Source: a virus | IMG/VR virus record: IMGVR_UViG_3300031414_000013 | Location: 1 to 64,000 of that record | Length of the DNA stretch: 64,000 nucleotides | Reading direction: 5' to 3' (one strand) | Notes under the pieces: model-generated | Databases searched by the model: none | What the model saw: only the letters and a program-made list of their open reading frames with translations | What the model was told of the DNA's origin: nothing | In this document: one piece after another, positions 36,747 to 51,064 of the stretch | Position numbering within the stretch: the first letter of the stretch is position 1 | Layout: the number at the start of each line of letters is the position of its first letter | Program-made: the position numbers and the translations under genes

Positions 36747-37223
36747 TTAGTCGCACGGCTTCCAGTATTCGTCTGTGAAATACAACTCTGTGGGAAGTTT
36801 CTTATCCGTGAGTAACTTCTGAACCTGAACACGAACACGCTCAAGTTGTGCCATGCAATCTTCATCTTTTCCTTCAACATAGAGGATAGACATGTGCGGG
36901 GCGTAGTTGTCGTAGCTGTAACTGAAACCAGCATCGATCAACTCAAAGTGACGCTTCATGATTTTGTCTGATGAAAGCAACAGAACAACGGCTTTACCCA
37001 AGACAGCCACACCCATTACACTGGCGTGATAAATCTCAGGTGGAATCTCGATATCGTCCGTGGTTTTACTGTTACGCTCATCATACATCAGAGTGCAGTG
37101 AAGTTTCTCAATCGGAATCAGTTTCAATCCTTTAGGCAGATCCAGATCACGAATAGCCTTCAACACGTTATTGTGTGGGTTGATAATCGGCTTTAGTGCC
37201 GAGTACCCGATTTTTGTACTCAT
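36747..37223 (-). CDS. 2H phosphoesterase, Acb1 / T4 57B-like
   Basis: LHCTLMY and PHMSILY (two HxT/S motifs); start moved to 37223 (GAGGA RBS). Confidence 0.8.
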   Translation of the reverse strand: MSTKIGYSALKPIINPHNNVLKAIRDLDLPKGLKLIPIEKLHCTLMYDERNSKTTDDIEIPPEIYHASVMGVAVLGKAVVLLLSSDKIMKRHFELIDAGFSYSYDNYAPHMSILYVEGKDEDCMAQLERVRVQVQKLLTDKKLPTELYFTDEYWKPCD

Positions 37224-37252
37224 TGCTAATCCTCTACGATAAATGCATAGAA

Positions 37253-37450
37253 TTAGCGACGGTTCCCACAATACCGACTTGCGGTTAGAATCAGGTAGAT
37301 AAGGATAGGAAGCCACCCCGTTGCCAGAACAACACGTTTGATTGTCAGCCAACCGTCCGCATTGCAATAGTTACGTGAGTCACAGTGCTTCTCTAACATA
37401 CGGTCGATCAGTAAAGCCACTATTAAATAGAGAGCCAGTCCATAATACAT
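37253..37450 (-). CDS. Small membrane protein
   Basis: Two hydrophobic segments, WLP motif. Confidence 0.55.
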   Translation of the reverse strand: MYYGLALYLIVALLIDRMLEKHCDSRNYCNADGWLTIKRVVLATGWLPILIYLILTASRYCGNRR

Positions 37451-39170: not shown

Positions 39171-39353
39171 TTAGATCTTACAGCCGTCGCCGCAGTCGTT
39201 ATCGCCTGCTGCCACTTCGATTGCTTCACCGCCACCAGAACGCATCTGGTCGACTTTCTCTTCTGACCCTTCCAGGTCCAGGTTGCCCAGCGCACCATCA
39301 ATGTCCAGTTCCCCAGCTGATGCTTTACCCAGAATCTCGTCTACCTTACTCAT
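39171..39353 (-). CDS. 60-aa acidic peptide ending in an NrdA-like tail
   Basis: C-terminus GDNDCGDGCKI; AAGGA RBS, overlap-coupled start. Confidence 0.7.
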   Translation of the reverse strand: MSKVDEILGKASAGELDIDGALGNLDLEGSEEKVDQMRSGGGEAIEVAAGDNDCGDGCKI

Positions 39354-39684
39354 CTTCGTTTTCCTTACAGTTAGGATTGTTAATCAACATACCATTGGCA
39401 TCTTTGAACGTGACGTCAATAGAACCATCCAATAGACCTTGTAAAGTAGCCAACACTTCCTCTGCCCGACTGTATGCAAAGAACGTGTCGCTACTAATGA
39501 AGTACATAATCTCACGAACTTGCTGGTTCGTGGCTTTCTTACCCAGCTCGGTGGCCAAGGCACGCATGGTGCGGTTCTTCGGCTTCTTACAACCAGGTTC
39601 GTTGAGTTCGCGCATCTGCGTTGAGATACTCAAGAGTGCGCTAGATAACTCACGACCCATCTGTAGTAGCGGCAGGTGTTCCAT
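39346..39684 (-). CDS. Small helical protein (family shared with 8673 and 54512)
   Basis: Start moved to 39684 (AAGGA RBS). Confidence 0.65.
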   Translation of the reverse strand: MEHLPLLQMGRELSSALLSISTQMRELNEPGCKKPKNRTMRALATELGKKATNQQVREIMYFISSDTFFAYSRAEEVLATLQGLLDGSIDVTFKDANGMLINNPNCKENEDE

Positions 39685-39982
39685 GGTCTTCCTTATATAA
39701 GTAGTCGAGCGAAAGTCCGAAGGCATTGTTTATAAAACGATTGCCTGCTTTTGGATCAGGAGGGTTCTCAGTGCTCGAATAATAGAACCCAACTTCAAGA
39801 CCCTTAGACTTGTCTATGCTCAGTTTAACTCTGCGATCCAACCGATGTACTACGTCAGCTAGAAAGTTCTCCAGAGACCGACTGACGTCGTCTACGGGGG
39901 TGTCGTACTGTGGATACGAACACACCCCAACGAGTTTGTCTTCTATGTCAGAATCGAAGAACGATAAGACTATAAAAGACAT
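39650..39982 (-). CDS. Hypothetical protein
   Basis: 110 aa, AAGGA RBS. Confidence 0.65.
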   Translation of the reverse strand: MSFIVLSFFDSDIEDKLVGVCSYPQYDTPVDDVSRSLENFLADVVHRLDRRVKLSIDKSKGLEVGFYYSSTENPPDPKAGNRFINNAFGLSLDYLYKEDHGTPAATTDGS

Positions 39983-39992
39983 TTATCGTTCC

Positions 39993-40895
39993 TTAGTTTT
40001 CCACCGCAGTTTTGCTCAGGCGAGCTTGCGCATGGTTGTAAGTATCATCGCGACCGAAGTCAATCACGCGGATGCTGGACTGCGCGATTATCGGGTACAT
40101 AGTAATGACGATCGCTATAAAATAGTACCCGGCTTCAGCGTTATGACGCACTTCAACGGTGTGAGTGTAGCCGAAGTTTTCAGCACGCAGTAATCCTGCA
40201 TAGTCGTCTACAAGCTCTTTACTCTCATGACGCAACGCAACAATCACACCGTTCCGATGGTGCTTAACCAAAACCGGCATAACGTCAGATGGCACTGCCC
40301 AAGACTGAGGTGTAAGTTCCCGGTCAAGATTGAATTCGGCCTCATCCTCAATTGGTGCCTCCAGGAAACCCATGAAGTAAAGACGCAGTTTGTTCAGAAT
40401 CTCGTACAGCACGCGAGTCTTCTCTGGAGTCTGCGCTGAGAACGTAACGCTACCGCCAGCAAAACCAACTACGATAGTGGTAGTGGCCGGACGAGGTTCT
40501 TCATCGCCGATGCGAGTCGGTTCTACCAAACTGATGCTGTAGGTGTTGGCCAGATCAAAACCGACTTCAGTAGGTACTGAGATCTGGTAGTGATAATGGT
40601 GCGGTACATTAACCACAGCAAGCACGCGACCAGTTTTAGAAATACGCAGGTTGCAAACTGACTTAAACTGCAAGAACGGGGCAAAGATCAAATCATCGAG
40701 GACGGTCTTAGCTTCAGACTTCTCGTCAATCAATTCTGCCAGTTCGTGCTCGAACACCAGGAACTCGATACCCATGGCATCCTCTACGATAGCAGTGCCC
40801 GGTTCAGTACCAAAACCGAGATAGCGAACAGACTTAGAGCAGATGCCTTCGTCTGGGTCGTTCCATTGATACCAGGTATTCTTCACCAGTTTCAT
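39993..40895 (-). CDS. Multi-domain hypothetical protein
   Basis: 300 aa, ATGA overlap. Confidence 0.75.
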   Translation of the reverse strand: MKLVKNTWYQWNDPDEGICSKSVRYLGFGTEPGTAIVEDAMGIEFLVFEHELAELIDEKSEAKTVLDDLIFAPFLQFKSVCNLRISKTGRVLAVVNVPHHYHYQISVPTEVGFDLANTYSISLVEPTRIGDEEPRPATTTIVVGFAGGSVTFSAQTPEKTRVLYEILNKLRLYFMGFLEAPIEDEAEFNLDRELTPQSWAVPSDVMPVLVKHHRNGVIVALRHESKELVDDYAGLLRAENFGYTHTVEVRHNAEAGYYFIAIVITMYPIIAQSSIRVIDFGRDDTYNHAQARLSKTAVEN

Positions 40896-41392
40896 TTGTT
40901 CTTTCCTTTCATTTTGAAGTTTGAGGCAAGAGCAGCAAGCTCGTCGAATGTACGAATAACAAACTGATGCTCTTTGGCGTCAGTTGCTTTACAGAAAAGC
41001 TTCACTGCGTCTTCCAGCGTATCCGTAAGCTCTAAGGCAGCGCGGGCATGCTCTTCTGCGGTAAGGTACTGAGATCGACAGGTCAACACACCCGGCCCGG
41101 TCATAATACGAACCTCACTGAGAAACGAATTTTCCTTATCGACGAAATAGTCACGCAAAACGCCATGCTCATCGACAACGGCAGTTATCCAGCGACTATC
41201 GTGGTTGATGTTATCGGAAACGCCGTCAGCGCGATAGTCCAGGAAGTTAGCGAACACCGGACTAGTCGGTACCAACACGCCGTACTTAGTAGTCAAAACA
41301 GCCAGCGGAATATGTGTGTACATGCCATTGGGACGAACTTCACCACACACGAAAGCAATTCGGTTGTCTCGAACCATATAAACGTTTGACAT
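40892..41392 (-). CDS. Degenerate proteasome-beta/HslV-like paralog (no N-terminal Thr)
   Basis: N-terminal strand pair and HARAALELTDTLEDAVKLF helix pair match the neighbouring gene. Confidence 0.5.
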   Translation of the reverse strand: MSNVYMVRDNRIAFVCGEVRPNGMYTHIPLAVLTTKYGVLVPTSPVFANFLDYRADGVSDNINHDSRWITAVVDEHGVLRDYFVDKENSFLSEVRIMTGPGVLTCRSQYLTAEEHARAALELTDTLEDAVKLFCKATDAKEHQFVIRTFDELAALASNFKMKGKNK

Positions 41393-41393
41393 C

Positions 41394-41915
41394 TCAACCT
41401 ACCTTAATTGCTTTCAGTTTGTTAGCGTGATACACATCTACACCACGACCAGACAGGGTGTCCATTCGGTTAGCGAATTCAACGGCCTGTTTTGGTGTAC
41501 GACCAGAGAGCATGGCGGAGGATGCGAAGGTAGCACCCGTACCAACTGTGAAGTAGTCGATGTGCTCGTCGGAGATTGAGATCAACCCTTCGATGATACT
41601 GATAAACAGTTTGCGAGTCAGGATCAGGGTGGGTTTACGCACACGTTTACTAACCGCAAGAGCGAGTTCAGTGAATCCGGTGTCAGTCAACTGACCACCT
41701 CCCGCAAAGTGGTGAGCAACCATGCGGAACAGTTTCTCTAACTCGTCAGTGTGGTTCTTACTGAGATCGATGCCAGTAGAACCGTAGACGAATGTACCGC
41801 AGTCAGACATTTTCAGCTTTGGACCATCAGCGAAATGCGTACCACCGTCGTCACCCTTGATTAGCAATTGGCGATCAGCGGCGATACATTTACTATTAAC
41901 AACAATCGTTGTCAT
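41394..41915 (-). CDS. Proteasome-beta/HslV-like Ntn hydrolase
   Basis: MTTIV...IAADRQ...K...TVGTGATFA..AM...AVEFA..D..SG. Confidence 0.8.
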   Translation of the reverse strand: MTTIVVNSKCIAADRQLLIKGDDGGTHFADGPKLKMSDCGTFVYGSTGIDLSKNHTDELEKLFRMVAHHFAGGGQLTDTGFTELALAVSKRVRKPTLILTRKLFISIIEGLISISDEHIDYFTVGTGATFASSAMLSGRTPKQAVEFANRMDTLSGRGVDVYHANKLKAIKVG

Positions 41916-41976
41916 GTTTTGATTCCTTATGGTGCGAAATAGAACGAGAGTGGGTTTTCACCCACTCTCTTATGCC

Positions 41977-42297
41977 TTAGAAGCCGTTAGACTTCATGCT
42001 GCGATCTGGGCTACCACGACCTGTGCGTTCAGGGGTGCGCGCAACAGACTTAACTACATCGCGACCAATCAGCAGACCGGAGTCCAGCTGGAAAGTAATC
42101 GCGTCGCCAACAGACAGAGTTTTCTCACCTTCCAGATAGTCGACCTTAACCGGAACCTGGCAGTGGTCTTCACCAGAGATAAAGATACCTTTCTTGTTGA
42201 TGGCAACAACTTCAGCCTTGACGGTGGTGACGTCACCTGCTTTGCCTTCCTGGACATTCAGCAGTGGTTTGAATTTATCAGCAATGGTCAGTTTCAT
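41977..42297 (-). CDS. Stand-alone S1/OB-fold protein resembling domain 1 of ribosomal protein bS1
   Basis: IADKF..LL..E..GD..V...VVAINK...LSVGDAI...LD...LL..R aligns by eye to bS1 residues 1-90. Confidence 0.65.
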   Translation of the reverse strand: MKLTIADKFKPLLNVQEGKAGDVTTVKAEVVAINKKGIFISGEDHCQVPVKVDYLEGEKTLSVGDAITFQLDSGLLIGRDVVKSVARTPERTGRGSPDRSMKSNGF

Positions 42298-42327
42298 TTC
42301 TTACGTTCCTATTAGTAAAGGGGAGCC

Positions 42328-44698
<2,371 letters not shown>

Positions 44699-44766
44699 TG
44701 TGTTTCCTTATATGGGTTAGTCAGAGAATTTCTCGTGCGTGTAAATTACTACCACATTCGCACTAG

Positions 44767-44784
44767 GATAATGTATACTTGAAA
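44767..44784 (-). promoter_or_regulatory. Early promoter motif
   Basis: TTTCAAGTATACATTATC. Confidence 0.65.
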
Positions 44785-44816
44785 CTTTGTTGAACAAAAA
44801 AAGAAAAGGATAGAAA

Positions 44817-44840
44817 AGAGGAGACCCGAAGGTCTCCTCT
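44817..44840 (-). terminator. Intrinsic terminator
   Basis: AGAGGAGACC-TTCG-GGTCTCCTCT then TTT. Confidence 0.85.
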
Positions 44841-44850
44841 AGTTTGTTAG

Positions 44851-45417
44851 TTATGCCCGAATCTGATGTTCTGCTGCTTTATAAATAGCGTCCATGAATT
44901 CGGTGTTTTCAGATACCGTGGCATTGAAACTCACGGGTCCATTGGACACATCGATTTTAGCTTCAACGTTGATGTCCAGATCAGGATAACCTACCACCAA
45001 CGTAACGGACTGGAGTTTGGTACCGAGATATTCTAAACGCATGCCGCCGGTGATGTTACCCTGAGTTTCAGTTTCGTAACGAGTGGTCGTTACGGACGCA
45101 AAGTCCTCAATCATTACTTCGTTGTCCACCAGCCAGCTAGCGCCTTTACGACCATGTTCGATGAGGTCACGGATCTCAGCGCGCTCAGTATCAGACAACG
45201 CATTGTCTGCATTGTAGGACTGCACGTAAAGCGTACGCTCAAACTCACCGGTTTCAGCATAGCTAGACAACGGACGGGTTTCCCAGATCGGTTGAGTGGA
45301 CATTGTGTCGCCAGTTGCACGATCCTGTACAACGATTTCGCCAACGCACGATTCGTCTGATTCTACGATGATAGCAAAACGGACATTGGTAAGAGCGATA
45401 GAAAGAATAGATTTCAT
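44851..45417 (-). CDS. Early acidic hypothetical protein (monocistronic)
   Basis: Lies between an early promoter motif and a terminator. Confidence 0.75.
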   Translation of the reverse strand: MKSILSIALTNVRFAIIVESDESCVGEIVVQDRATGDTMSTQPIWETRPLSSYAETGEFERTLYVQSYNADNALSDTERAEIRDLIEHGRKGASWLVDNEVMIEDFASVTTTRYETETQGNITGGMRLEYLGTKLQSVTLVVGYPDLDINVEAKIDVSNGPVSFNATVSENTEFMDAIYKAAEHQIRA

Positions 45418-45473
45418 GTTTTGATTCCTTATAGAGATTAAGTTGAGTGAACAGCATTGTTACTGTTCACTCA

Positions 45474-45491
45474 GGTCTTATATATCTGAAA
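45474..45491 (-). promoter_or_regulatory. Early promoter motif (variant)
   Basis: TTTCAGATATATAAGACC. Confidence 0.55.
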
Positions 45492-45507
45492 ATTTATTGA
45501 AACGACA

Positions 45508-45999
45508 CTAGCGGTCACGAACCCGCACCAGTGCATCTCCCAACATATTCAGACCACGCCAACACGTTTGATCCATGTGGTCCGGATGATCAACGTCCAT
45601 CCCAATTCCCCAGAGCGTATCTGTAGGTGAGGCTTCTACCAGCAGTCGCTTACCGGTTGCTTTCAGTTCAGCCATCATCTCTGGGTTCTGTTCAAACTTG
45701 GCAGACAGTACGTCACACATCGTAGCAAATCGCTCGCCAGCCCATACCTGATCGTTGTAAGGAGATACTTCACGACCCAGCATTTTACAGATGAACGGGG
45801 CATTACGTTTGCCTGGATCTACGGCAGCGATTTTAGCAGCCACCCGGTAGTCCTTAAAGTGCATTGCCTTCAACCACATGAATGCCTGTTCTGAGCAGAA
45901 GAAATTCACGCCCGCCAAGTTAAACTCGCAACGATAGAAGTTGCTGTAGATGTCGTCCCCATAATAGAAGAAGACAAACTCATCAGTTGTCTTTACCAT
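45508..45999 (-). CDS. NADAR (YbiA/DUF1768) family protein
   Basis: YSNFY...SEQAFM..KA..F, K.LGR.V, KFEQN, LVEASPTD.LWGIG, G.N.LG; start at 45999. Confidence 0.92.
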   Translation of the reverse strand: MVKTTDEFVFFYYGDDIYSNFYRCEFNLAGVNFFCSEQAFMWLKAMHFKDYRVAAKIAAVDPGKRNAPFICKMLGREVSPYNDQVWAGERFATMCDVLSAKFEQNPEMMAELKATGKRLLVEASPTDTLWGIGMDVDHPDHMDQTCWRGLNMLGDALVRVRDR

Positions 46000-46243
46000 G
46001 TGTCTCCACCGTACATTCGAGGACAATAGCAGGAGGGAAGAAGTCAGGCTTGTTGGTAATGCTATCCCACTGCACCTGAATCTGCTCACGTAGTTGCTGT
46101 TGTAATATCAGCTTGAGCTTAAACACTGGACACTGATACTTACGGCGACCTTTAGGAATGACCTGGTACGGGTTCTTACGATGCAGGTTTTTCTTTTCCT
46201 GTCGAGTCAGAACAGCCGTTGGGTCTATGTACGACTTTGGCAT
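45983..46243 (-). CDS. Small basic hypothetical protein
   Basis: 86 aa, GAGGA RBS. Confidence 0.6.
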   Translation of the reverse strand: MPKSYIDPTAVLTRQEKKNLHRKNPYQVIPKGRRKYQCPVFKLKLILQQQLREQIQVQWDSITNKPDFFPPAIVLECTVETHGKDN

Positions 46244-46737
46244 TTTAACATCCTCTTCATTTTCTCAGAGAAAGAAACCTTCTCTTTGATGACTGGTTCG
46301 AAATAGCTAAAGAAGGCGGCTACCGAATGACATGCGTTCGCTGCCAGGATACAATTCAACAGCACCGCATGCTCTTCGCTTTTCAGTGGGTTCAGTCCAG
46401 GCATATTGAACGGATGTCGTCTACCCGCATCGATGTTCTCCTGTGTCCACAGTGGAGCCACAGCCAACCCTGGATGTTTGTACCCAATAACATCATTCAC
46501 AAGCCACGTACCGTCGCATGTGACGATCAAGGCTTTATGCGTGAGGTTGCCGTAGAAGCTATCGCCCTTCTCAAGATAGCCTTCCAGTAGGAAGTCAAGG
46601 TGCTCACGGAATGCGAATACACCAACCATGATAATCTGACTACCTGCCCATTTAGCATCTGGACCATTTTTACTGTAGGCGAAACAGAGCTGCGCTGCGC
46701 TGTCCTCCACACCGTTAGATGAAAGCATGACTCTCAT
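46225..46737 (-). CDS. Hypothetical protein, possible degenerate Ntn-fold paralog
   Basis: ALIVTCDGTWLV and EEHA patterns shared with the Ntn paralogs. Confidence 0.55.
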   Translation of the reverse strand: MRVMLSSNGVEDSAAQLCFAYSKNGPDAKWAGSQIIMVGVFAFREHLDFLLEGYLEKGDSFYGNLTHKALIVTCDGTWLVNDVIGYKHPGLAVAPLWTQENIDAGRRHPFNMPGLNPLKSEEHAVLLNCILAANACHSVAAFFSYFEPVIKEKVSFSEKMKRMLKCQSRT

Positions 46738-47183
46738 TGGAGACTCCCGTTAAATACGTACTCGAGTTTACCACGACGATACGCACCTTTAACAACTTCA
46801 TCTAGTGAGTAGCCATAGCGATTAACAAAGATCCTACTGTACTGACCTAGTAGCTCCTCAGACACGGTCACGAGCGGTGCGCTGGTCTCCAGAAGCTCCA
46901 TGCCTCGCTCTAGGAGTCGTAACCCTAAGCCAGTGTTCTGATGACTTGGGGAGACCCTTACACAACGTAGTTTCTTTTCGTCCCCATTTTTAGCCAAAAC
47001 AAAACCGGCCAGCGTCCCGCCAACAAAAGCTCCTATTGCTAGGTTGCTTTCATTGGCGGGGTCAGATAGGACTTTGTTACGATACCAGTTGTCAATGTTC
47101 GGGTAGTACTGATCTAATGTCAGCAGGGATGGAGTGAGGAGCCGAAGCTCCTCCAACGTGTTAAGTTTTCTTATTTCTAACAT
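46734..47183 (-). CDS. GNAT-family acetyltransferase
   Basis: VRVSPSHQNTGLGLRLL acetyl-CoA motif A. Confidence 0.85.
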   Translation of the reverse strand: MLEIRKLNTLEELRLLTPSLLTLDQYYPNIDNWYRNKVLSDPANESNLAIGAFVGGTLAGFVLAKNGDEKKLRCVRVSPSHQNTGLGLRLLERGMELLETSAPLVTVSEELLGQYSRIFVNRYGYSLDEVVKGAYRRGKLEYVFNGSLQ

Positions 47184-47544
47184 TGTTCAACCAGAAGACA
47201 AACCGTAACCAAAGTCGGCCCCACCAATGCTTGTTCAATTTAGTGAACATCTGAACCGACTCACCCATTTCTTTAAAGACTTCGGAGTTGGAGAAAACAC
47301 CAACCTGACCGTATGGCGTATGCAATGCCGCATACCAACCGTAGGCGTCGTCTGGTTTATCCTTGATCTCCTTAAGCTCCCAGCCAGGATAGCTCTCCGC
47401 AATAACATCACGCATTGCACCTGGGTCGTACAGATAGTCAGTGCGAAGACTATCTTTGATATGTTCGGGCGCGTTGTCGTGCCACCAGTCACGAGCCGCT
47501 GGATTTTCATCAAGCCACTCTTTTGCTATTTTCAAACTATCCAT
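47161..47544 (-). CDS. Hypothetical protein
   Basis: 127 aa, AAGGA RBS. Confidence 0.7.
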   Translation of the reverse strand: MDSLKIAKEWLDENPAARDWWHDNAPEHIKDSLRTDYLYDPGAMRDVIAESYPGWELKEIKDKPDDAYGWYAALHTPYGQVGVFSNSEVFKEMGESVQMFTKLNKHWWGRLWLRFVFWLNNVRNKKT

Positions 47545-47553
47545 TGTGATTCC

Positions 47554-48198
47554 TTAATATTTAAATGTGTTGTTGTACCAAGTGCCGAATCTTACCGCAT
47601 AGCTAAGCAAGCAACCGTAGTACACGCGAAGCATTGGATAACGATAGTGCTTAGTGACCATCTTAGGTTCACGCGCATTTGTATCGTACATACGCAGGTA
47701 TCCACCGCAGCCAGCCGATAAGGCTATCGCTGCACAGACAGTACCAATTTCATCTGTCTTGAAAAACCGTGTGATGACTTCCACCGGAGCACGCCCAGAT
47801 CCAATGCATACGAATTCATCACGCTTGTGATTTTTAACCACAAATGCTGAACCTTCACTTGACCGACGGAAGTTGACTTCGTAGCAATGGTTAGCTGTCA
47901 AGACTAACATAGTGCAATCCAACCCAACTGCCGCTTTTATAGCACGCAACACTTTATACGAGTCGAGTGCTTCCTTGCCGCCCTTTAGTAGCATTTCCGT
48001 TGCGATAGTGATTGCATCAGACGCACCTGCACCAGCAACAGCCAGGATAACCTCTTTACCCCAAACCGCAAGTTTCTCCTCTTGCCTATATGCCGGGTAA
48101 GGTGTGATCTTTACAATGTTATCGTGTTGAGACACACCGCGTGCTACCGTTCTTGAGTCCGCATAAAAGACACCATCGCGCTGAACAATGACCGTCAT
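47554..48198 (-). CDS. Proteasome-beta/HslV-like Ntn hydrolase
   Basis: (M)TVIV...YADSR...KI...AGAG...IGSG...GCGG; RBS spacing favours the second ATG, exposing Thr1. Confidence 0.75.
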   Translation of the reverse strand: MTVIVQRDGVFYADSRTVARGVSQHDNIVKITPYPAYRQEEKLAVWGKEVILAVAGAGASDAITIATEMLLKGGKEALDSYKVLRAIKAAVGLDCTMLVLTANHCYEVNFRRSSEGSAFVVKNHKRDEFVCIGSGRAPVEVITRFFKTDEIGTVCAAIALSAGCGGYLRMYDTNAREPKMVTKHYRYPMLRVYYGCLLSYAVRFGTWYNNTFKY

Positions 48199-48200
48199 CA

Positions 48201-48533
48201 TTACTCCTTAATTAACACCAGAACTTCACCGTCCATATCCGCTACACCAGCAGCATAGACCAACGCATCCTCGACACCCAGGCCGTTAGAGTCGCCTTCC
48301 AGTAGCAATTCAATTATGCGACTGGCTAGCCAGGTCGGCAACGTATGCGTAGTGTTGCCTTTGACTAAAGCAACCGTGTTTACTTTGTCATACGGACCTT
48401 CAAAATAAATCATGAAGGAATGTGACGGCGTGATGCACTTCCGGTCAACAACACGATTGACTTTATAAAGAAGTACGGTGTCCCAAACTGTAAACTGACG
48501 CTTGGTCACTTGGATTGGGTTTTTGTTGATCAT
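48201..48533 (-). CDS. Hypothetical protein
   Basis: 110 aa, GGAGG RBS. Confidence 0.7.
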   Translation of the reverse strand: MINKNPIQVTKRQFTVWDTVLLYKVNRVVDRKCITPSHSFMIYFEGPYDKVNTVALVKGNTTHTLPTWLASRIIELLLEGDSNGLGVEDALVYAAGVADMDGEVLVLIKE

Positions 48534-48811
48534 ACGACCTCCGGGTGCGTGTTATAGATGACCCATTGTTTACAGCGTTCCATGATTTCCTCTACGGCAT
48601 CGCGCTCCACACCTGCGTCCAACAAACCAGTCTCGATGTCCGGTAAGGTTTGGAAGTCCCAACGGCCGTCGGCTCGCGCTGCCGTAATAAAAGCTATCCA
48701 GTCTACCCGCATTTTTCTTTTTACGATGATCTCATTTAAAGAAACGTCGAGTGGTAATCCGTGGGTTGCTTTGAGTTGAAACAGTTTGTCGCCTGGAAAT
48801 AAAATAGACAC
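48530..48811 (-). CDS. Stand-alone alanyl-tRNA synthetase helical-subdomain-like protein
   Basis: GDKLFQLKATHGLPLD...VDWIAF matches the AlaRS G..AF.LYDTYGFP.D...VD..GF motif. Confidence 0.7.
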   Translation of the reverse strand: MSILFPGDKLFQLKATHGLPLDVSLNEIIVKRKMRVDWIAFITAARADGRWDFQTLPDIETGLLDAGVERDAVEEIMERCKQWVIYNTHPEVV

Positions 48812-50587: not shown

Positions 50588-51064
50588 TTATCCAGCCAAA
50601 TAGACAACTACGTTATCGCTAGCGACACCAGAGATCGCACGAAACGTTTTGTCGTAGGAGAACAACCCAAAGTAACGAGAGGCTTCATCAATGATGATTG
50701 TATCGAACTGATTGCAATCACCTATTATCGGCGATTTACCGCGCCGTTCCTGTTCGCTGTAAAACGCACCACTCCAGATAAAGGGTTTGGGTACACCACT
50801 GAGTTCCTGCTCCCAGCGTTGTTCGAAAGACTCCCGCAAGGTCCGATCGGGGAAAACGATGAGCGTTTTACCATGGTCCTTCAGAGCCAGATTACGCACG
50901 GTATGTGTCATGCCTGTCTGTCTTGTACCCCGAAAGCCAATCGTTCTGAACTCAGCGATCGCCCTGTAGCGCGGACTGTTGATACACATGGCTCTATCTG
51001 AGTCCAATGCGACTACACCCTTTAACAGTTCTTCCACCACTGCGTTATAGTTTACGCGGGTCAT
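50588..51064 (-). CDS. Small P-loop NTPase-like protein
   Basis: GTRQTGMT (Walker A-like, no Lys) and IIIDEA (Walker B). Confidence 0.6.
   Translation of the reverse strand: MTRVNYNAVVEELLKGVVALDSDRAMCINSPRYRAIAEFRTIGFRGTRQTGMTHTVRNLALKDHGKTLIVFPDRTLRESFEQRWEQELSGVPKPFIWSGAFYSEQERRGKSPIIGDCNQFDTIIIDEASRYFGLFSYDKTFRAISGVASDNVVVYLAG

Follow-up and report, generated by a model that had tools for sequence, protein, structure and literature searches.

Three small ORFs are found on the minus strand of a 64,000-nucleotide stretch of viral DNA (IMG/VR record IMGVR_UViG_3300031414_000013, positions 1 to 64,000; the window), at 39171–39353 (gene a, 60 amino acids), 41977–42297 (gene b, 106 amino acids) and 48530–48811 (gene c, 93 amino acids). 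The region in which they lie is an accessory block that is rich in counter-defence genes, encoding Acb1, a NADAR protein and a gp49_66/Tad1-like protein. Each ORF is preceded by a Shine-Dalgarno site of the AGGA/GGGAG type, 6–13 nt upstream, and comparison with the orthologous contig L011 gives dN/dS ratios of 0.08 for a, 0.20 for b and 0.12 for c, at dS values of 0.7–1.2. Because the ORFs are present, have their own Shine-Dalgarno sites and show dN/dS ratios of 0.08–0.20, we conclude that all three are real genes under purifying selection. Thus, the preliminary description of this region, which proposed three stand-alone genes of 60–106 amino acids with their own ribosome binding sites, is confirmed on this point, and its statement that none carries a catalytic core holds for all three.

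Gene a encodes an acidic peptide that belongs to a phage ‘RNR-tail’ family similar to phrog_10239 (E 1.5e-4), with relatives in ∼106 phage records of a wider phage collection. The last 25 residues of the peptide are identical in the L011 ortholog despite a dS of 1.16. Residues 43–60 (39174–39227, minus strand) form an NrdA-like redox tail, EAIEVAAGDNDCGDGCKI, defined by hhalign and by an hmmsearch of the PDB; in the window, the spacing is CX3C instead of the usual CX4C, and the peptide has K-I at its C-terminus. By itself, the window peptide has no significant similarity to NrdA. At the level of the family, however, the resemblance to the redox tail of the class Ia RNR alpha subunit that had been noted by eye is borne out by three comparisons. 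First, in BLASTP the relative from phage Alexandra aligns end to end with E. coli NrdA 737–761 (E 6e-6) and is identical to it in the last 9 residues; one family member terminates in GCESGACKI, the exact end of E. coli NrdA. Second, hhalign pairs family columns 43–60 with E. coli NrdA 744–761 (E 7e-5). Third, the family profile matches NrdA 745–761 in the PDB (E 0.32), and the matches include 1qfn_B, a 25-residue NrdA tail peptide solved bound to glutaredoxin; apart from E. coli NrdA, the matches were designed TIM barrels and one natural protein, a peroxisomal enzyme that scored more weakly and lacks the stretch.

The family thus shares with the NrdA tail (E. coli ∼737–761, with Cys754 and Cys759) an acidic flexible segment, the terminal C-x-x-G-A-C-K-I and an alignment anchored at the end. 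Unlike the NrdA tail, its members are free-standing or are fused to non-RNR domains, and they have a phage-specific layout in which an acidic N-terminal motif and a conserved M-R-x-G-G-G-E hinge precede the NrdA-like C-terminus. The acidic motif (residues 16–27; 39273–39308, minus strand) is kept in two family alignments with the pattern hydrophobic-D-hydrophobic-D-x-L-x-N-hydrophobic-D-hydrophobic. It is a putative look-alike of the NrdB tail; the best local alignments with NrdB fall on the last 10–12 residues of NrdB and are not significant (E 0.23–0.25), and a PDB search returned no NrdB match.

To place the family in its genomic context, we note that neighbors of gene a in separate lineages encode a dCMP deaminase (AD1), MazG (SPAsTU) and thymidylate synthase (GJ1). 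None of 13 genomes that carry gene a yielded an RNR large subunit (PF02867), in a search in which the positive control, XaC1, scored 4.6e-121; these 13 genomes represent ∼5 lineages and many phages have no RNR, so this absence is a weak anti-correlation. Since the carrier phages lack a reductase of their own, gene a would most likely act on the host, plugging into the thiol relay between host RNR and thioredoxin or glutaredoxin. It could serve there as an additional shuttle, working in trans to re-reduce the active site of NrdA, or it could compete with the native NrdA tail, and either action would tune dNTP supply. Yeast Sml1 would be a functional analog if gene a is a competitor: this RNR inhibitor is small and disordered, and it hampers the regeneration of R1 by the CX2C tail at the R1 C-terminus (Zhang et al. 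2007, PMC1892911, summarised in PMC6382339). Both are small and probably disordered, and both would act at the step of regeneration by the R1 tail. However, Sml1 is unrelated to gene a in sequence, lacks a redox pair of Cys residues that would imitate the tail, and is a eukaryotic cell-cycle regulator rather than a viral protein.

It is somewhat unlikely, in our assessment, that gene a is not directed at RNR, and is instead a portable tail that recruits thioredoxin or glutaredoxin to a phage partner, or a decoy that ties up these host proteins. In SPLA10 (282 amino acids) and SA002 (163 amino acids), the module is indeed joined to N-terminal domains that are unrelated to each other, the SA002 protein corresponding to genes 102 and 103 of pEa_SNUABM_37 joined together, and glutaredoxin is known to bind the NrdA tail as a free peptide (1qfn). 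A phage partner would also fit the frequent overlap of the family's genes with the gene upstream. In the window, the upstream gene (39346–39726, minus strand; 126 amino acids, with a weak DUF7740 match and an ortholog in pEa_SNUABM_54) overlaps the start of gene a by 8 nt, and the two are probably translationally coupled. However, there is no common client, because the upstream or fused partners are not homologous between phage lineages. Moreover, in some members the likeness to NrdA does not stop at the Cys pair but takes in the V-P-S/D-D segment, which is specific to NrdA, and the lack of RNR in carriers also counts against a partner or decoy.

Gene c encodes a five-helix protein (AF2 pLDDT 88.8) derived from AlaRS's tRNA-recognition domain, with homologs in 24 phage records. 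Its resemblance to a helical subdomain of AlaRS, also pointed out previously, is substantiated by several methods, each giving a match below curated or significance thresholds. All 12 members of the family matched the Pfam model tRNA-synt_2c, with a best E of 8.8e-6 and scores that stay under the gathering score, and the top 10 Foldseek hits were all AlaRS (47 columns, rmsd 1.8 Å, 26–29% identity, E 0.86). VIA-align placed the protein on E. coli AlaRS 385–435 (Z 4.3–4.7), and hhalign on AlaRS 389–426 (E 0.005). From MAFFT and hhalign, residues 4–47 (48671–48802, minus strand) are homologous to E. coli AlaRS ∼389–437, and we conclude that gene c is a domesticated piece of AlaRS corresponding to these residues. 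It shares with the tRNA-recognition domain (PF01411 ∼382–423) the conserved F-x-L-x-x-T-x-G-x-P-x-D and the local helix-strand arrangement. Unlike AlaRS, it is homologous over only ∼45 residues and has no catalytic, editing or C-Ala domain, and its C-terminal half is phage-specific and helical, with an invariant WDFQT motif that has no AlaRS counterpart.

Some homologs of gene c have been named ‘alanyl-tRNA synthetase’ or ‘alanine-tRNA ligase’ in GenBank, in Serratia phage Moabite (gp235), Totoro and Xanthomonas phage XaC1; the Moabite record refers to InterPro IPR018162 and HHpred at 88–89%. These proteins are direct homologs of gene c (41–45% identity), but they are too small for synthetases and the names are database labels only. 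The AlaRS segment copied in gene c contacts the minor groove of the acceptor stem, and the phage protein would most likely bind the tRNA acceptor stem or a tRNA-like RNA. Its RNA specificity would be altered, because Ala15, which is invariant in the family, stands in place of AlaRS Asp400, the residue that reads G3:U70 (PMC10036535). Two other phages have neighbors with a link to tRNA: in FBKp24 this is RtcB, and in XaC1 it is a cluster of tRNA genes. The neighbors of gene c in the window include neither tRNA genes nor RtcB. Two genes downstream of gene c lies a homolog of the HslV-family peptidases (47554–48201, minus strand; phrog_1040, E 4.2e-9).

Gene b encodes an S1/cold-shock-like beta-barrel, an assignment that comes from weak alignments and from the AF2 model (pLDDT 74), in which the barrel comprises residues 14–81. 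The family is rare and restricted to one clade: it is found in 1 record of the wider phage collection, and among 1.84 billion representatives its relatives account for no more than 4 clusters of small proteins. Its best-conserved motif, G-[ST]-P-D-[RY]-S-x-K, lies in the C-terminal tail (residues 87–104; 41986–42039, minus strand), which is modeled with low confidence (pLDDT about 50); G95, P97, D98 and K102 are invariant in 10 sequences with identity down to 38%.

For gene b, the best alignment is to domain 1 of bS1, as had been proposed; it is weak, however, and the majority of the uS2-contact residues are not kept. When offered all S1 repeats of the E. coli protein, BLASTP and hhalign each select domain 1 (OB1, bound to uS2 in 4TOI; PMC10123108), collinear from residue 1–5 and including the N-terminal helix, with 26–30% identity and E values of 3e-3 to 4.5e-4 per comparison. 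The top PDB profile match is the NMR structure of bS1 domain 1 (2mfi, E 0.54), the highest identity among the fold matches (26%) is to a chimera of S2 and the S1 N-terminal domain (4toi), and close members keep Phe9 of the anchoring helix and a hydrophobic residue 5. If gene b were a true mimic, it would dock on uS2, displace or block host bS1 and bias translation; we consider this rather improbable. The hhalign matches to bS1 residues 4/5–73/90 (E 4.5e-4 to 8.4e-4) have a probability of just 24–33%, the Pfam S1_2 match is under the cut-off (E 0.039), the similarity is not significant against databases, and no bS1 appeared among the matches in 1.84 billion proteins. Of the published uS2 contacts of bS1 (F5, Q7, F9, E10, K43 and F79; PMC10123108), 1 of 6 is identical in gene b and that one varies in divergent members, in which the F9 contact is lost; E10 is replaced by an invariant Lys, K43 by His or Gly, and F79 is deleted. 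Moreover, the C-terminal motif, the best-conserved part of gene b, is absent from bS1. The likeness to bS1 domain 1 is thus only suggestive.

The neighbors of gene b raise a second possibility. Directly 3′ of it on the coding strand is a homolog of the HslV-family peptidases (41394–41915, minus strand; phrog_1040, E 1.2e-13), and directly 5′ is an NAD-dependent DNA ligase (42328–44382, minus strand), assigned by tblastn to phage LigA genes and by synteny. The C-terminal tails of proteasomal activators dock on their peptidases, and by analogy gene b might serve the phage's own HslV-like peptidase as an adaptor or cap with an OB fold that docks via its C-terminal motif, a reading that we regard as doubtful. 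The adjacency to the peptidase gene is conserved in L011, L012 and pEa_SNUABM_54, with identity down to 40% in the last, and the strong conservation of the tail fits docking. Foldseek gives its highest probabilities (0.82–0.87) to the OB rings of the Rpt ATPases of the proteasome, and the VIA-align list includes the OB domains of Mpa and PAN. However, the fold searches return generic OB/S1-like barrels only, with weak scores (Z ≤ 5.4), gene b lacks a motif of the HbYX type, and the ligase–b–HslV arrangement is known from one clade only. We describe gene b as an S1/cold-shock-like barrel that is specific to its clade and carries a conserved peptide motif at the C-terminus.

If the three genes form a coordinated host-mimicry set, as had been suggested, they would competitively modulate translation and dNTP supply or act as decoys for defences that guard the host proteins. 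Several features are consistent with this idea. All three genes lie within 10 kb, in the same block as the counter-defence genes; two of them, a and c, can be shown to copy modules of host proteins, in each case with no catalytic core, and both are present in FBKp24 and in the pEa_SNUABM_54 clade. However, this reading is already disfavored and we consider it very unlikely, because the three genes occur independently outside this phage clade. Their phyletic distributions are largely disjoint (∼106, 1 and 24 records for a, b and c), five carriers of gene a lack gene c, and two of three tested carriers of gene c (Moabite and XaC1) lack gene a. Even in FBKp24, genes a and c are 63 kb apart. Unrelated genes lie between the three, and their co-occurrence in close relatives reflects synteny of the whole region.

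There is precedent for isolated modules of translation proteins in phages. Jumbo phages encode stand-alone translation-related domains, such as a protein with the LysRS KTSC RNA-binding domain (Iyer et al. 2021, PMC7824862), and some ribosomal proteins are encoded by viruses (Mizuno et al. 2019, PMC6375957); the latter study explicitly leaves S1 domains out of account, since they are not confined to ribosomal proteins. A fragment of AlaRS, a mimic of bS1 domain 1 and a peptide like the RNR tail are absent from both papers. Overall, we think it reasonably probable that this jumbo phage, which is related to Erwinia phage pEa_SNUABM_54, carries in its accessory block three independently acquired genes, with the roles predicted above for a and c, rather than one system.

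Three small genes on the minus strand, (a) at 39171-39353, (b) at 41977-42297 and (c) at 48530-48811, encode proteins of 60, 106 and 93 aa that a preliminary description had likened to the redox tail of NrdA (class Ia RNR alpha), to domain 1 of bS1 and to a subdomain of AlaRS, respectively, and had grouped as a host-mimicry toolkit. The claim that these are three stand-alone genes of 60-106 aa, each with its own ribosome-binding site, is borne out. A Shine-Dalgarno-like site lies 6-13 nt upstream of each ORF, and comparison with the orthologs in L011, a syntenic metagenomic viral contig, gave dN/dS values of 0.08 for (a), 0.20 for (b) and 0.12 for (c), at dS of 0.7-1.2. The final 25 residues of (a) are identical in the L011 ortholog although dS is >1.

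The most interesting of the three elements is (a), which is undescribed in the literature we searched; we found no description of a phage NrdA-tail mimic or of a free-standing RNR redox tail. The gene has no match in Pfam and matches phrog_10239 (function unknown) in PHROGs, and a tblastn search of phage records found relatives in 36-106 records from several unrelated phage groups. The carriers include the 52-kb Chaseviridae (phiEcoM-GJ1-like), the Alexandra-like Erwinia/Dickeya jumbo phages and the Miami-like Klebsiella phages, as well as Serratia PCH45 and Salmonella SPLA10, SA002 and SPAsTU. Translated relatives share an acidic N-terminal motif (hydrophobic-D-hydrophobic-D-x-L-x-N-hydrophobic-D-hydrophobic), followed by a hinge with the pattern V-[ED]-x-M-R-x-G-G-G-E and then by an acidic linker, and terminate in C-x(3,4)-C-x-I. 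The last residues of E. coli NrdA are ...DLVPSIQDDGCESGACKI and those of the Alexandra peptide ...DADGCESGACKI; the corresponding ends are CESGACEI in PCH45, CEGGACKI in Miami and ...AIVP[GS]...C[ST]SGACAI in GJ1 and one metagenomic relative. The CX4C spacing of NrdA (C754-x4-C759) is present in Alexandra, PCH45, Miami, GJ1 and a further family member, P0022. The copy in the window, which ends in DNDCGDGCKI, has the C-terminal Cys pair followed by two residues (x-I) and the acidic flexible segment before it, but lacks CX4C and instead has CX3C, as does the subgroup of SPLA10 and pEa_SNUABM_37.

The assignment of (a) to the RNR alpha redox tail holds for the family, but not for the window copy taken alone, a divergent CX3C variant whose comparison with NrdA was not significant. 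When the Alexandra peptide was compared with full-length NrdA, the two C-termini aligned end-to-end (BLASTP, E 6e-6), and columns 43-60 of the family aligned with NrdA 744-761 (hhalign, E 7e-5). A single-sequence search of the PDB with (a) gave no match. In a search of 177,635 PDB sequences with the family profile, all natural matches except one were E. coli NrdA, including 1qfn_B, a 25-residue peptide of the NrdA tail whose structure was determined with glutaredoxin; apart from these, the search listed designed four-fold TIM barrels and a weak, stretch-less match to the peroxisomal multifunctional enzyme 3oml. The E value of the NrdA match, 0.32, is modest because just 17 residues align. A chance match is unlikely, since the protein found was the one predicted a priori and both C-termini are anchored.

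The RNR large subunit (PF02867) was detected in none of 13 complete genomes that carry (a) and was not found in the 97-kb record from which the window derives; the control, XaC1, which does not carry (a), was positive. Genes of nucleotide metabolism (dCMP deaminase, MazG and thymidylate synthase) lie near (a) in three separate lineages. The (a) gene usually overlaps its upstream neighbour, and these neighbours are non-homologous across lineages; moreover, in SPLA10 (282 aa) and SA002 (163 aa), two fusions that differ from each other, the module sits at the C-terminus of a larger, unrelated protein. Thus, the (a) module is portable. The possibility that (a) is one part of a split protein with a constant, homologous upstream partner was rejected, as the partners differ by lineage; the sole exception is the SA002 fusion (L017 1141-1632), which corresponds to genes 102 and 103 of Erwinia phage pEa_SNUABM_37 (L018 1099-1647, 108 and 61 aa) joined together. 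Separately, we noted that a 158-aa ‘mini terminase-like’ ORF at 50588-51064 of the window resembles by eye the SPAsTU gene upstream of the tail peptide (L020 940-1419), with a similar N-terminal segment, ...Y-x-A-V-V-[KE]-E-L-x-K-G....

In NrdA, the disulfide of the active site receives its electrons from thioredoxin or glutaredoxin by way of the tail residues Cys754 and Cys759. This electron shuttle makes the host RNR thiol relay the most likely target of (a), judging from its sequence, and the peptide would either boost or block that relay. If the peptide blocks the relay, yeast Sml1 is a precedent in function, as it is reported to interfere with tail-mediated R1 regeneration (summarised in PMC6382339). 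We also put forward, as a doubtful proposal, that (a) might be a chimeric ‘double-tail’ plug of the host class Ia RNR, with an N-terminus like the NrdB (RNR beta) tail and a C-terminus like the NrdA redox tail. In that case the acidic N-terminal motif, as a mimic of the NrdB docking tail (V-D-T-D-D-L-S-N-F-Q-L), would hold the peptide in the NrdA groove that binds beta, and the C-terminus, as a mimic of the redox tail, would extend to the active site. The motif looks by eye like the docking tail at the end of NrdB (...EVDTDDLSNFQL), and its best local alignments to NrdB fall on exactly the last 10-12 residues of that protein, but with E ∼0.25; a profile of the motif retrieved no NrdB from the PDB.

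The description of (c) as a helical subdomain of AlaRS proved largely right. The (c) family comprises 12 clusters in a large protein collection; among phages it was found in 24 records, every one from a jumbo phage of Enterobacterales or Xanthomonas. All 12 members match Pfam tRNA-synt_2c (PF01411) at profile positions ∼382-423 of 552 (best E 8.8e-6, all under the gathering score). The AF2 model (pLDDT 88.8) consists of five helices and two short strands, and its best 10 Foldseek matches are all AlaRS catalytic fragments, aligned over 47 columns with an rmsd of 1.8 A and 26-29% identity (probability up to 0.89, E 0.86). In VIA-align, residues 1-53 of the model superpose on residues 385-435 of E. 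coli AlaRS (Z 4.3-4.7), and hhalign against full-length AlaRS picks residues 389-426 (E 0.005). From these four comparisons, with scores that are all below curated thresholds, (c) is homologous to the segment of the AlaRS tRNA-recognition subdomain around E. coli residues 389-437. The link came through Pfam and fold comparison; a single-sequence PDB search gave no match, and the sequence profile retrieved no AlaRS from the PDB. VIA-align ranked a designed helical repeat first (Z 5.6), a match that we set aside as unspecific packing of helices.

The class II catalytic core (motifs 1-3) is absent from the 93-aa protein. In E. coli AlaRS, Asp400 and Asn303 read the G3:U70 identity pair, with Asp400 reading the 2-amino group of G3 (PMC10036535). 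The position of Asp400 is occupied in (c) by an invariant Ala15 (12/12 members), such that the AlaRS motif L-Y-D-T-Y-G-F-P is replaced in the family by L-K-A-T-H-G-L-P, and the C-terminal half of (c) carries an invariant W-D-F-Q-T without an AlaRS counterpart. Most likely, (c) would bind the tRNA acceptor stem or a similar RNA, with a specificity unlike that of AlaRS. A homolog in Klebsiella phage FBKp24 (L016 5077-6321) lies 1.3 kb from the gene for the RtcB tRNA-splicing ligase, and that of Xanthomonas phage XaC1 (L015 132-1838) sits within a cluster of tRNA genes; near (c) in the window, no tRNA gene and no RtcB was found. Databases already note the AlaRS fragment, as the Moabite, Totoro and XaC1 records name their homologs ‘alanyl-tRNA synthetase’ (the Moabite note gives InterPro IPR018162 and HHpred 88-89%); our literature search found no description of a phage AlaRS fragment.

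The 64-kb window is part of a 97-kb IMG/VR virus record with a completeness estimate of 36%, and megablast against phage records found no match to the 10-kb region and no near relative. The NAD-dependent DNA ligase at 42328-44382 has 52% identity to the ligase of the Erwinia jumbo phage pEa_SNUABM_54 (272 kb). The block at 37-51 kb is transcribed from the minus strand and is syntenic with pEa_SNUABM_54 and the metagenomic contigs L011 and L012, with protein identity to the two contigs of ∼75-90%. On this strand are found a homolog of the Acb1 anti-CBASS phosphodiesterase (36747-37367; Pfam PF23474, E 1e-13), which is 1.8 kb downstream of (a) and is kept in pEa_SNUABM_54 and L011; a NADAR-domain protein (45508-46089; PF08719, E 3e-37); and an ORF overlapping the start of the ligase gene (44351-44698) with a weak match to the Tad1-type gp49_66 family (Phage_gp49_66, E 3e-4, under the cut-off). 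Two paralogous homologs of HslV-family peptidases, both minus-strand matches to phrog_1040, lie directly after (b) (41394-41915, E 1e-13) and two genes after (c) (47554-48201, E 4e-9); neither matched in a Pfam search, and no HslU-like ATPase was seen near them. A GNAT acetyltransferase gene is also present. Since the block holds Acb1, NADAR, weakly Tad1-like, GNAT and two HslV-family genes, it is an accessory region of the host-takeover type. Members of the NADAR family reverse ADP-ribosylation, and the NADAR protein here is plausibly a counter-defence gene.

The (b) family is very small, with seven closely related members, and among cultured phages it occurs in pEa_SNUABM_54 alone. When 1.84 billion representatives were searched exhaustively with HMMER, the family grew by just three small, divergent proteins and two proteins with repeats, and bS1 was not among the matches; scans of viral contigs for the divergent homologs (P0028-P0030) found nothing, and a metagenome scan for them yielded no additional contig. 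The resemblance of (b) to bS1 domain 1 is weak. When (b) was set against residues 1-402 of E. coli bS1, BLASTP and hhalign both picked domain 1, collinear from the N-terminus, at 26-30% identity (per-comparison E 3e-3 to 4.5e-4), and the best PDB profile match is the NMR structure of this domain (E 0.54). The hhalign probability is low (24-33%), the match to Pfam S1_2 is sub-threshold (E 0.039, 14.5 bits, cut-off 21.8), and the contacts to uS2 are mostly lost. Among the bS1 residues that contact uS2, Phe5, Gln7, Phe9, Glu10, Lys43 and Phe79 (PMC10123108), just F9, one of six, is identical in (b); F5 is I/V, E10 is an invariant K, K43 is H/G and F79 is deleted, and F9 itself is not kept in the divergent P0029 and P0030. 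PF00575 gave no match in (b), and a single-sequence PDB search gave PDZ-domain noise only.

The AF2 model of (b) is a small barrel (pLDDT 74) that matches generic OB, S1 and cold-shock folds at Z ≤5.4, among them the S2-S1 chimera 4toi (Z 3.9), and a language-model protein look-up points weakly to S1/CSD-like clusters (score ≤0.85). The highest Foldseek probabilities belong to OB rings of proteasomal ATPases, which would fit a second explanation, that (b) is an adaptor of the phage HslV-like peptidase; consistent with this, (b) adjoins an HslV-family gene, and the order ligase-(b)-HslV-family peptidase is kept in pEa_SNUABM_54. Given the weak bS1 alignment, the lost uS2 contacts, the HslV adjacency and the proteasomal-ATPase OB matches, we rate a bS1 domain 1 mimic and a peptidase adaptor about equally, each as a tentative candidate. 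No description of a phage bS1 domain 1 mimic was found in the literature searched. Conservation in the (b) family peaks in a C-terminal motif modelled with low confidence, G-[ST]-P-D-[RY]-S-x-K, which is missing from bS1 and corresponded to no known docking motif that we could name; encoded at 41986-42039 (minus strand), it is better kept than the barrel, in homologs down to 38% identity. Residues ∼48-86 (G-E-x-x-L-x-V-G-D...F-Q) match 6-9 tandem repeats in the large metagenomic proteins P0031 (4392 aa, E 8.5e-12) and P0032 (663 aa, E 1.7e-4), and this strand-hairpin unit may occur more widely as a repeat. Right after the (b) stop and before the HslV-like gene, a perfect GC-rich hairpin at 41937-41976 (minus strand), GAGAGTGGGT...ACCCACTCTC, is followed by a T-rich run and is, by its sequence, terminator-like.

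The preliminary observation was for the most part correct in the case of (a) and (c) and weak in that of (b). A coordinated toolkit is not supported. The three genes are separated by 2.6 kb and 6.2 kb of unrelated genes, and their joint presence in L011, L012 and pEa_SNUABM_54 reflects synteny of the whole block. In other phages, their distributions are largely disjoint: five carriers of (a) are without (c), Moabite and XaC1 have (c) but not (a), and in FBKp24, which has both, they are 63 kb apart. We found no shared phyletic distribution or linkage beyond close relatives, and the synteny and distribution comparisons gave no sign of functional coupling.

The lack of a linked toolkit keeps a plausible-looking grouping from over-interpretation. 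The (c) gene shows phages domesticating a single sub-domain that contacts the acceptor stem, and not just whole synthetases; this might have to do with protecting or repairing tRNA. If (a) acts on the host thiol relay, it would be a new route by which viruses without a reductase control the host's rate-limiting step in the supply of DNA precursors, and it is a compact, testable probe of the access of the NrdA tail to the active site and reductants. Were the double-tail proposal true, phages that lack RNR could directly turn host dNTP synthesis on or off.
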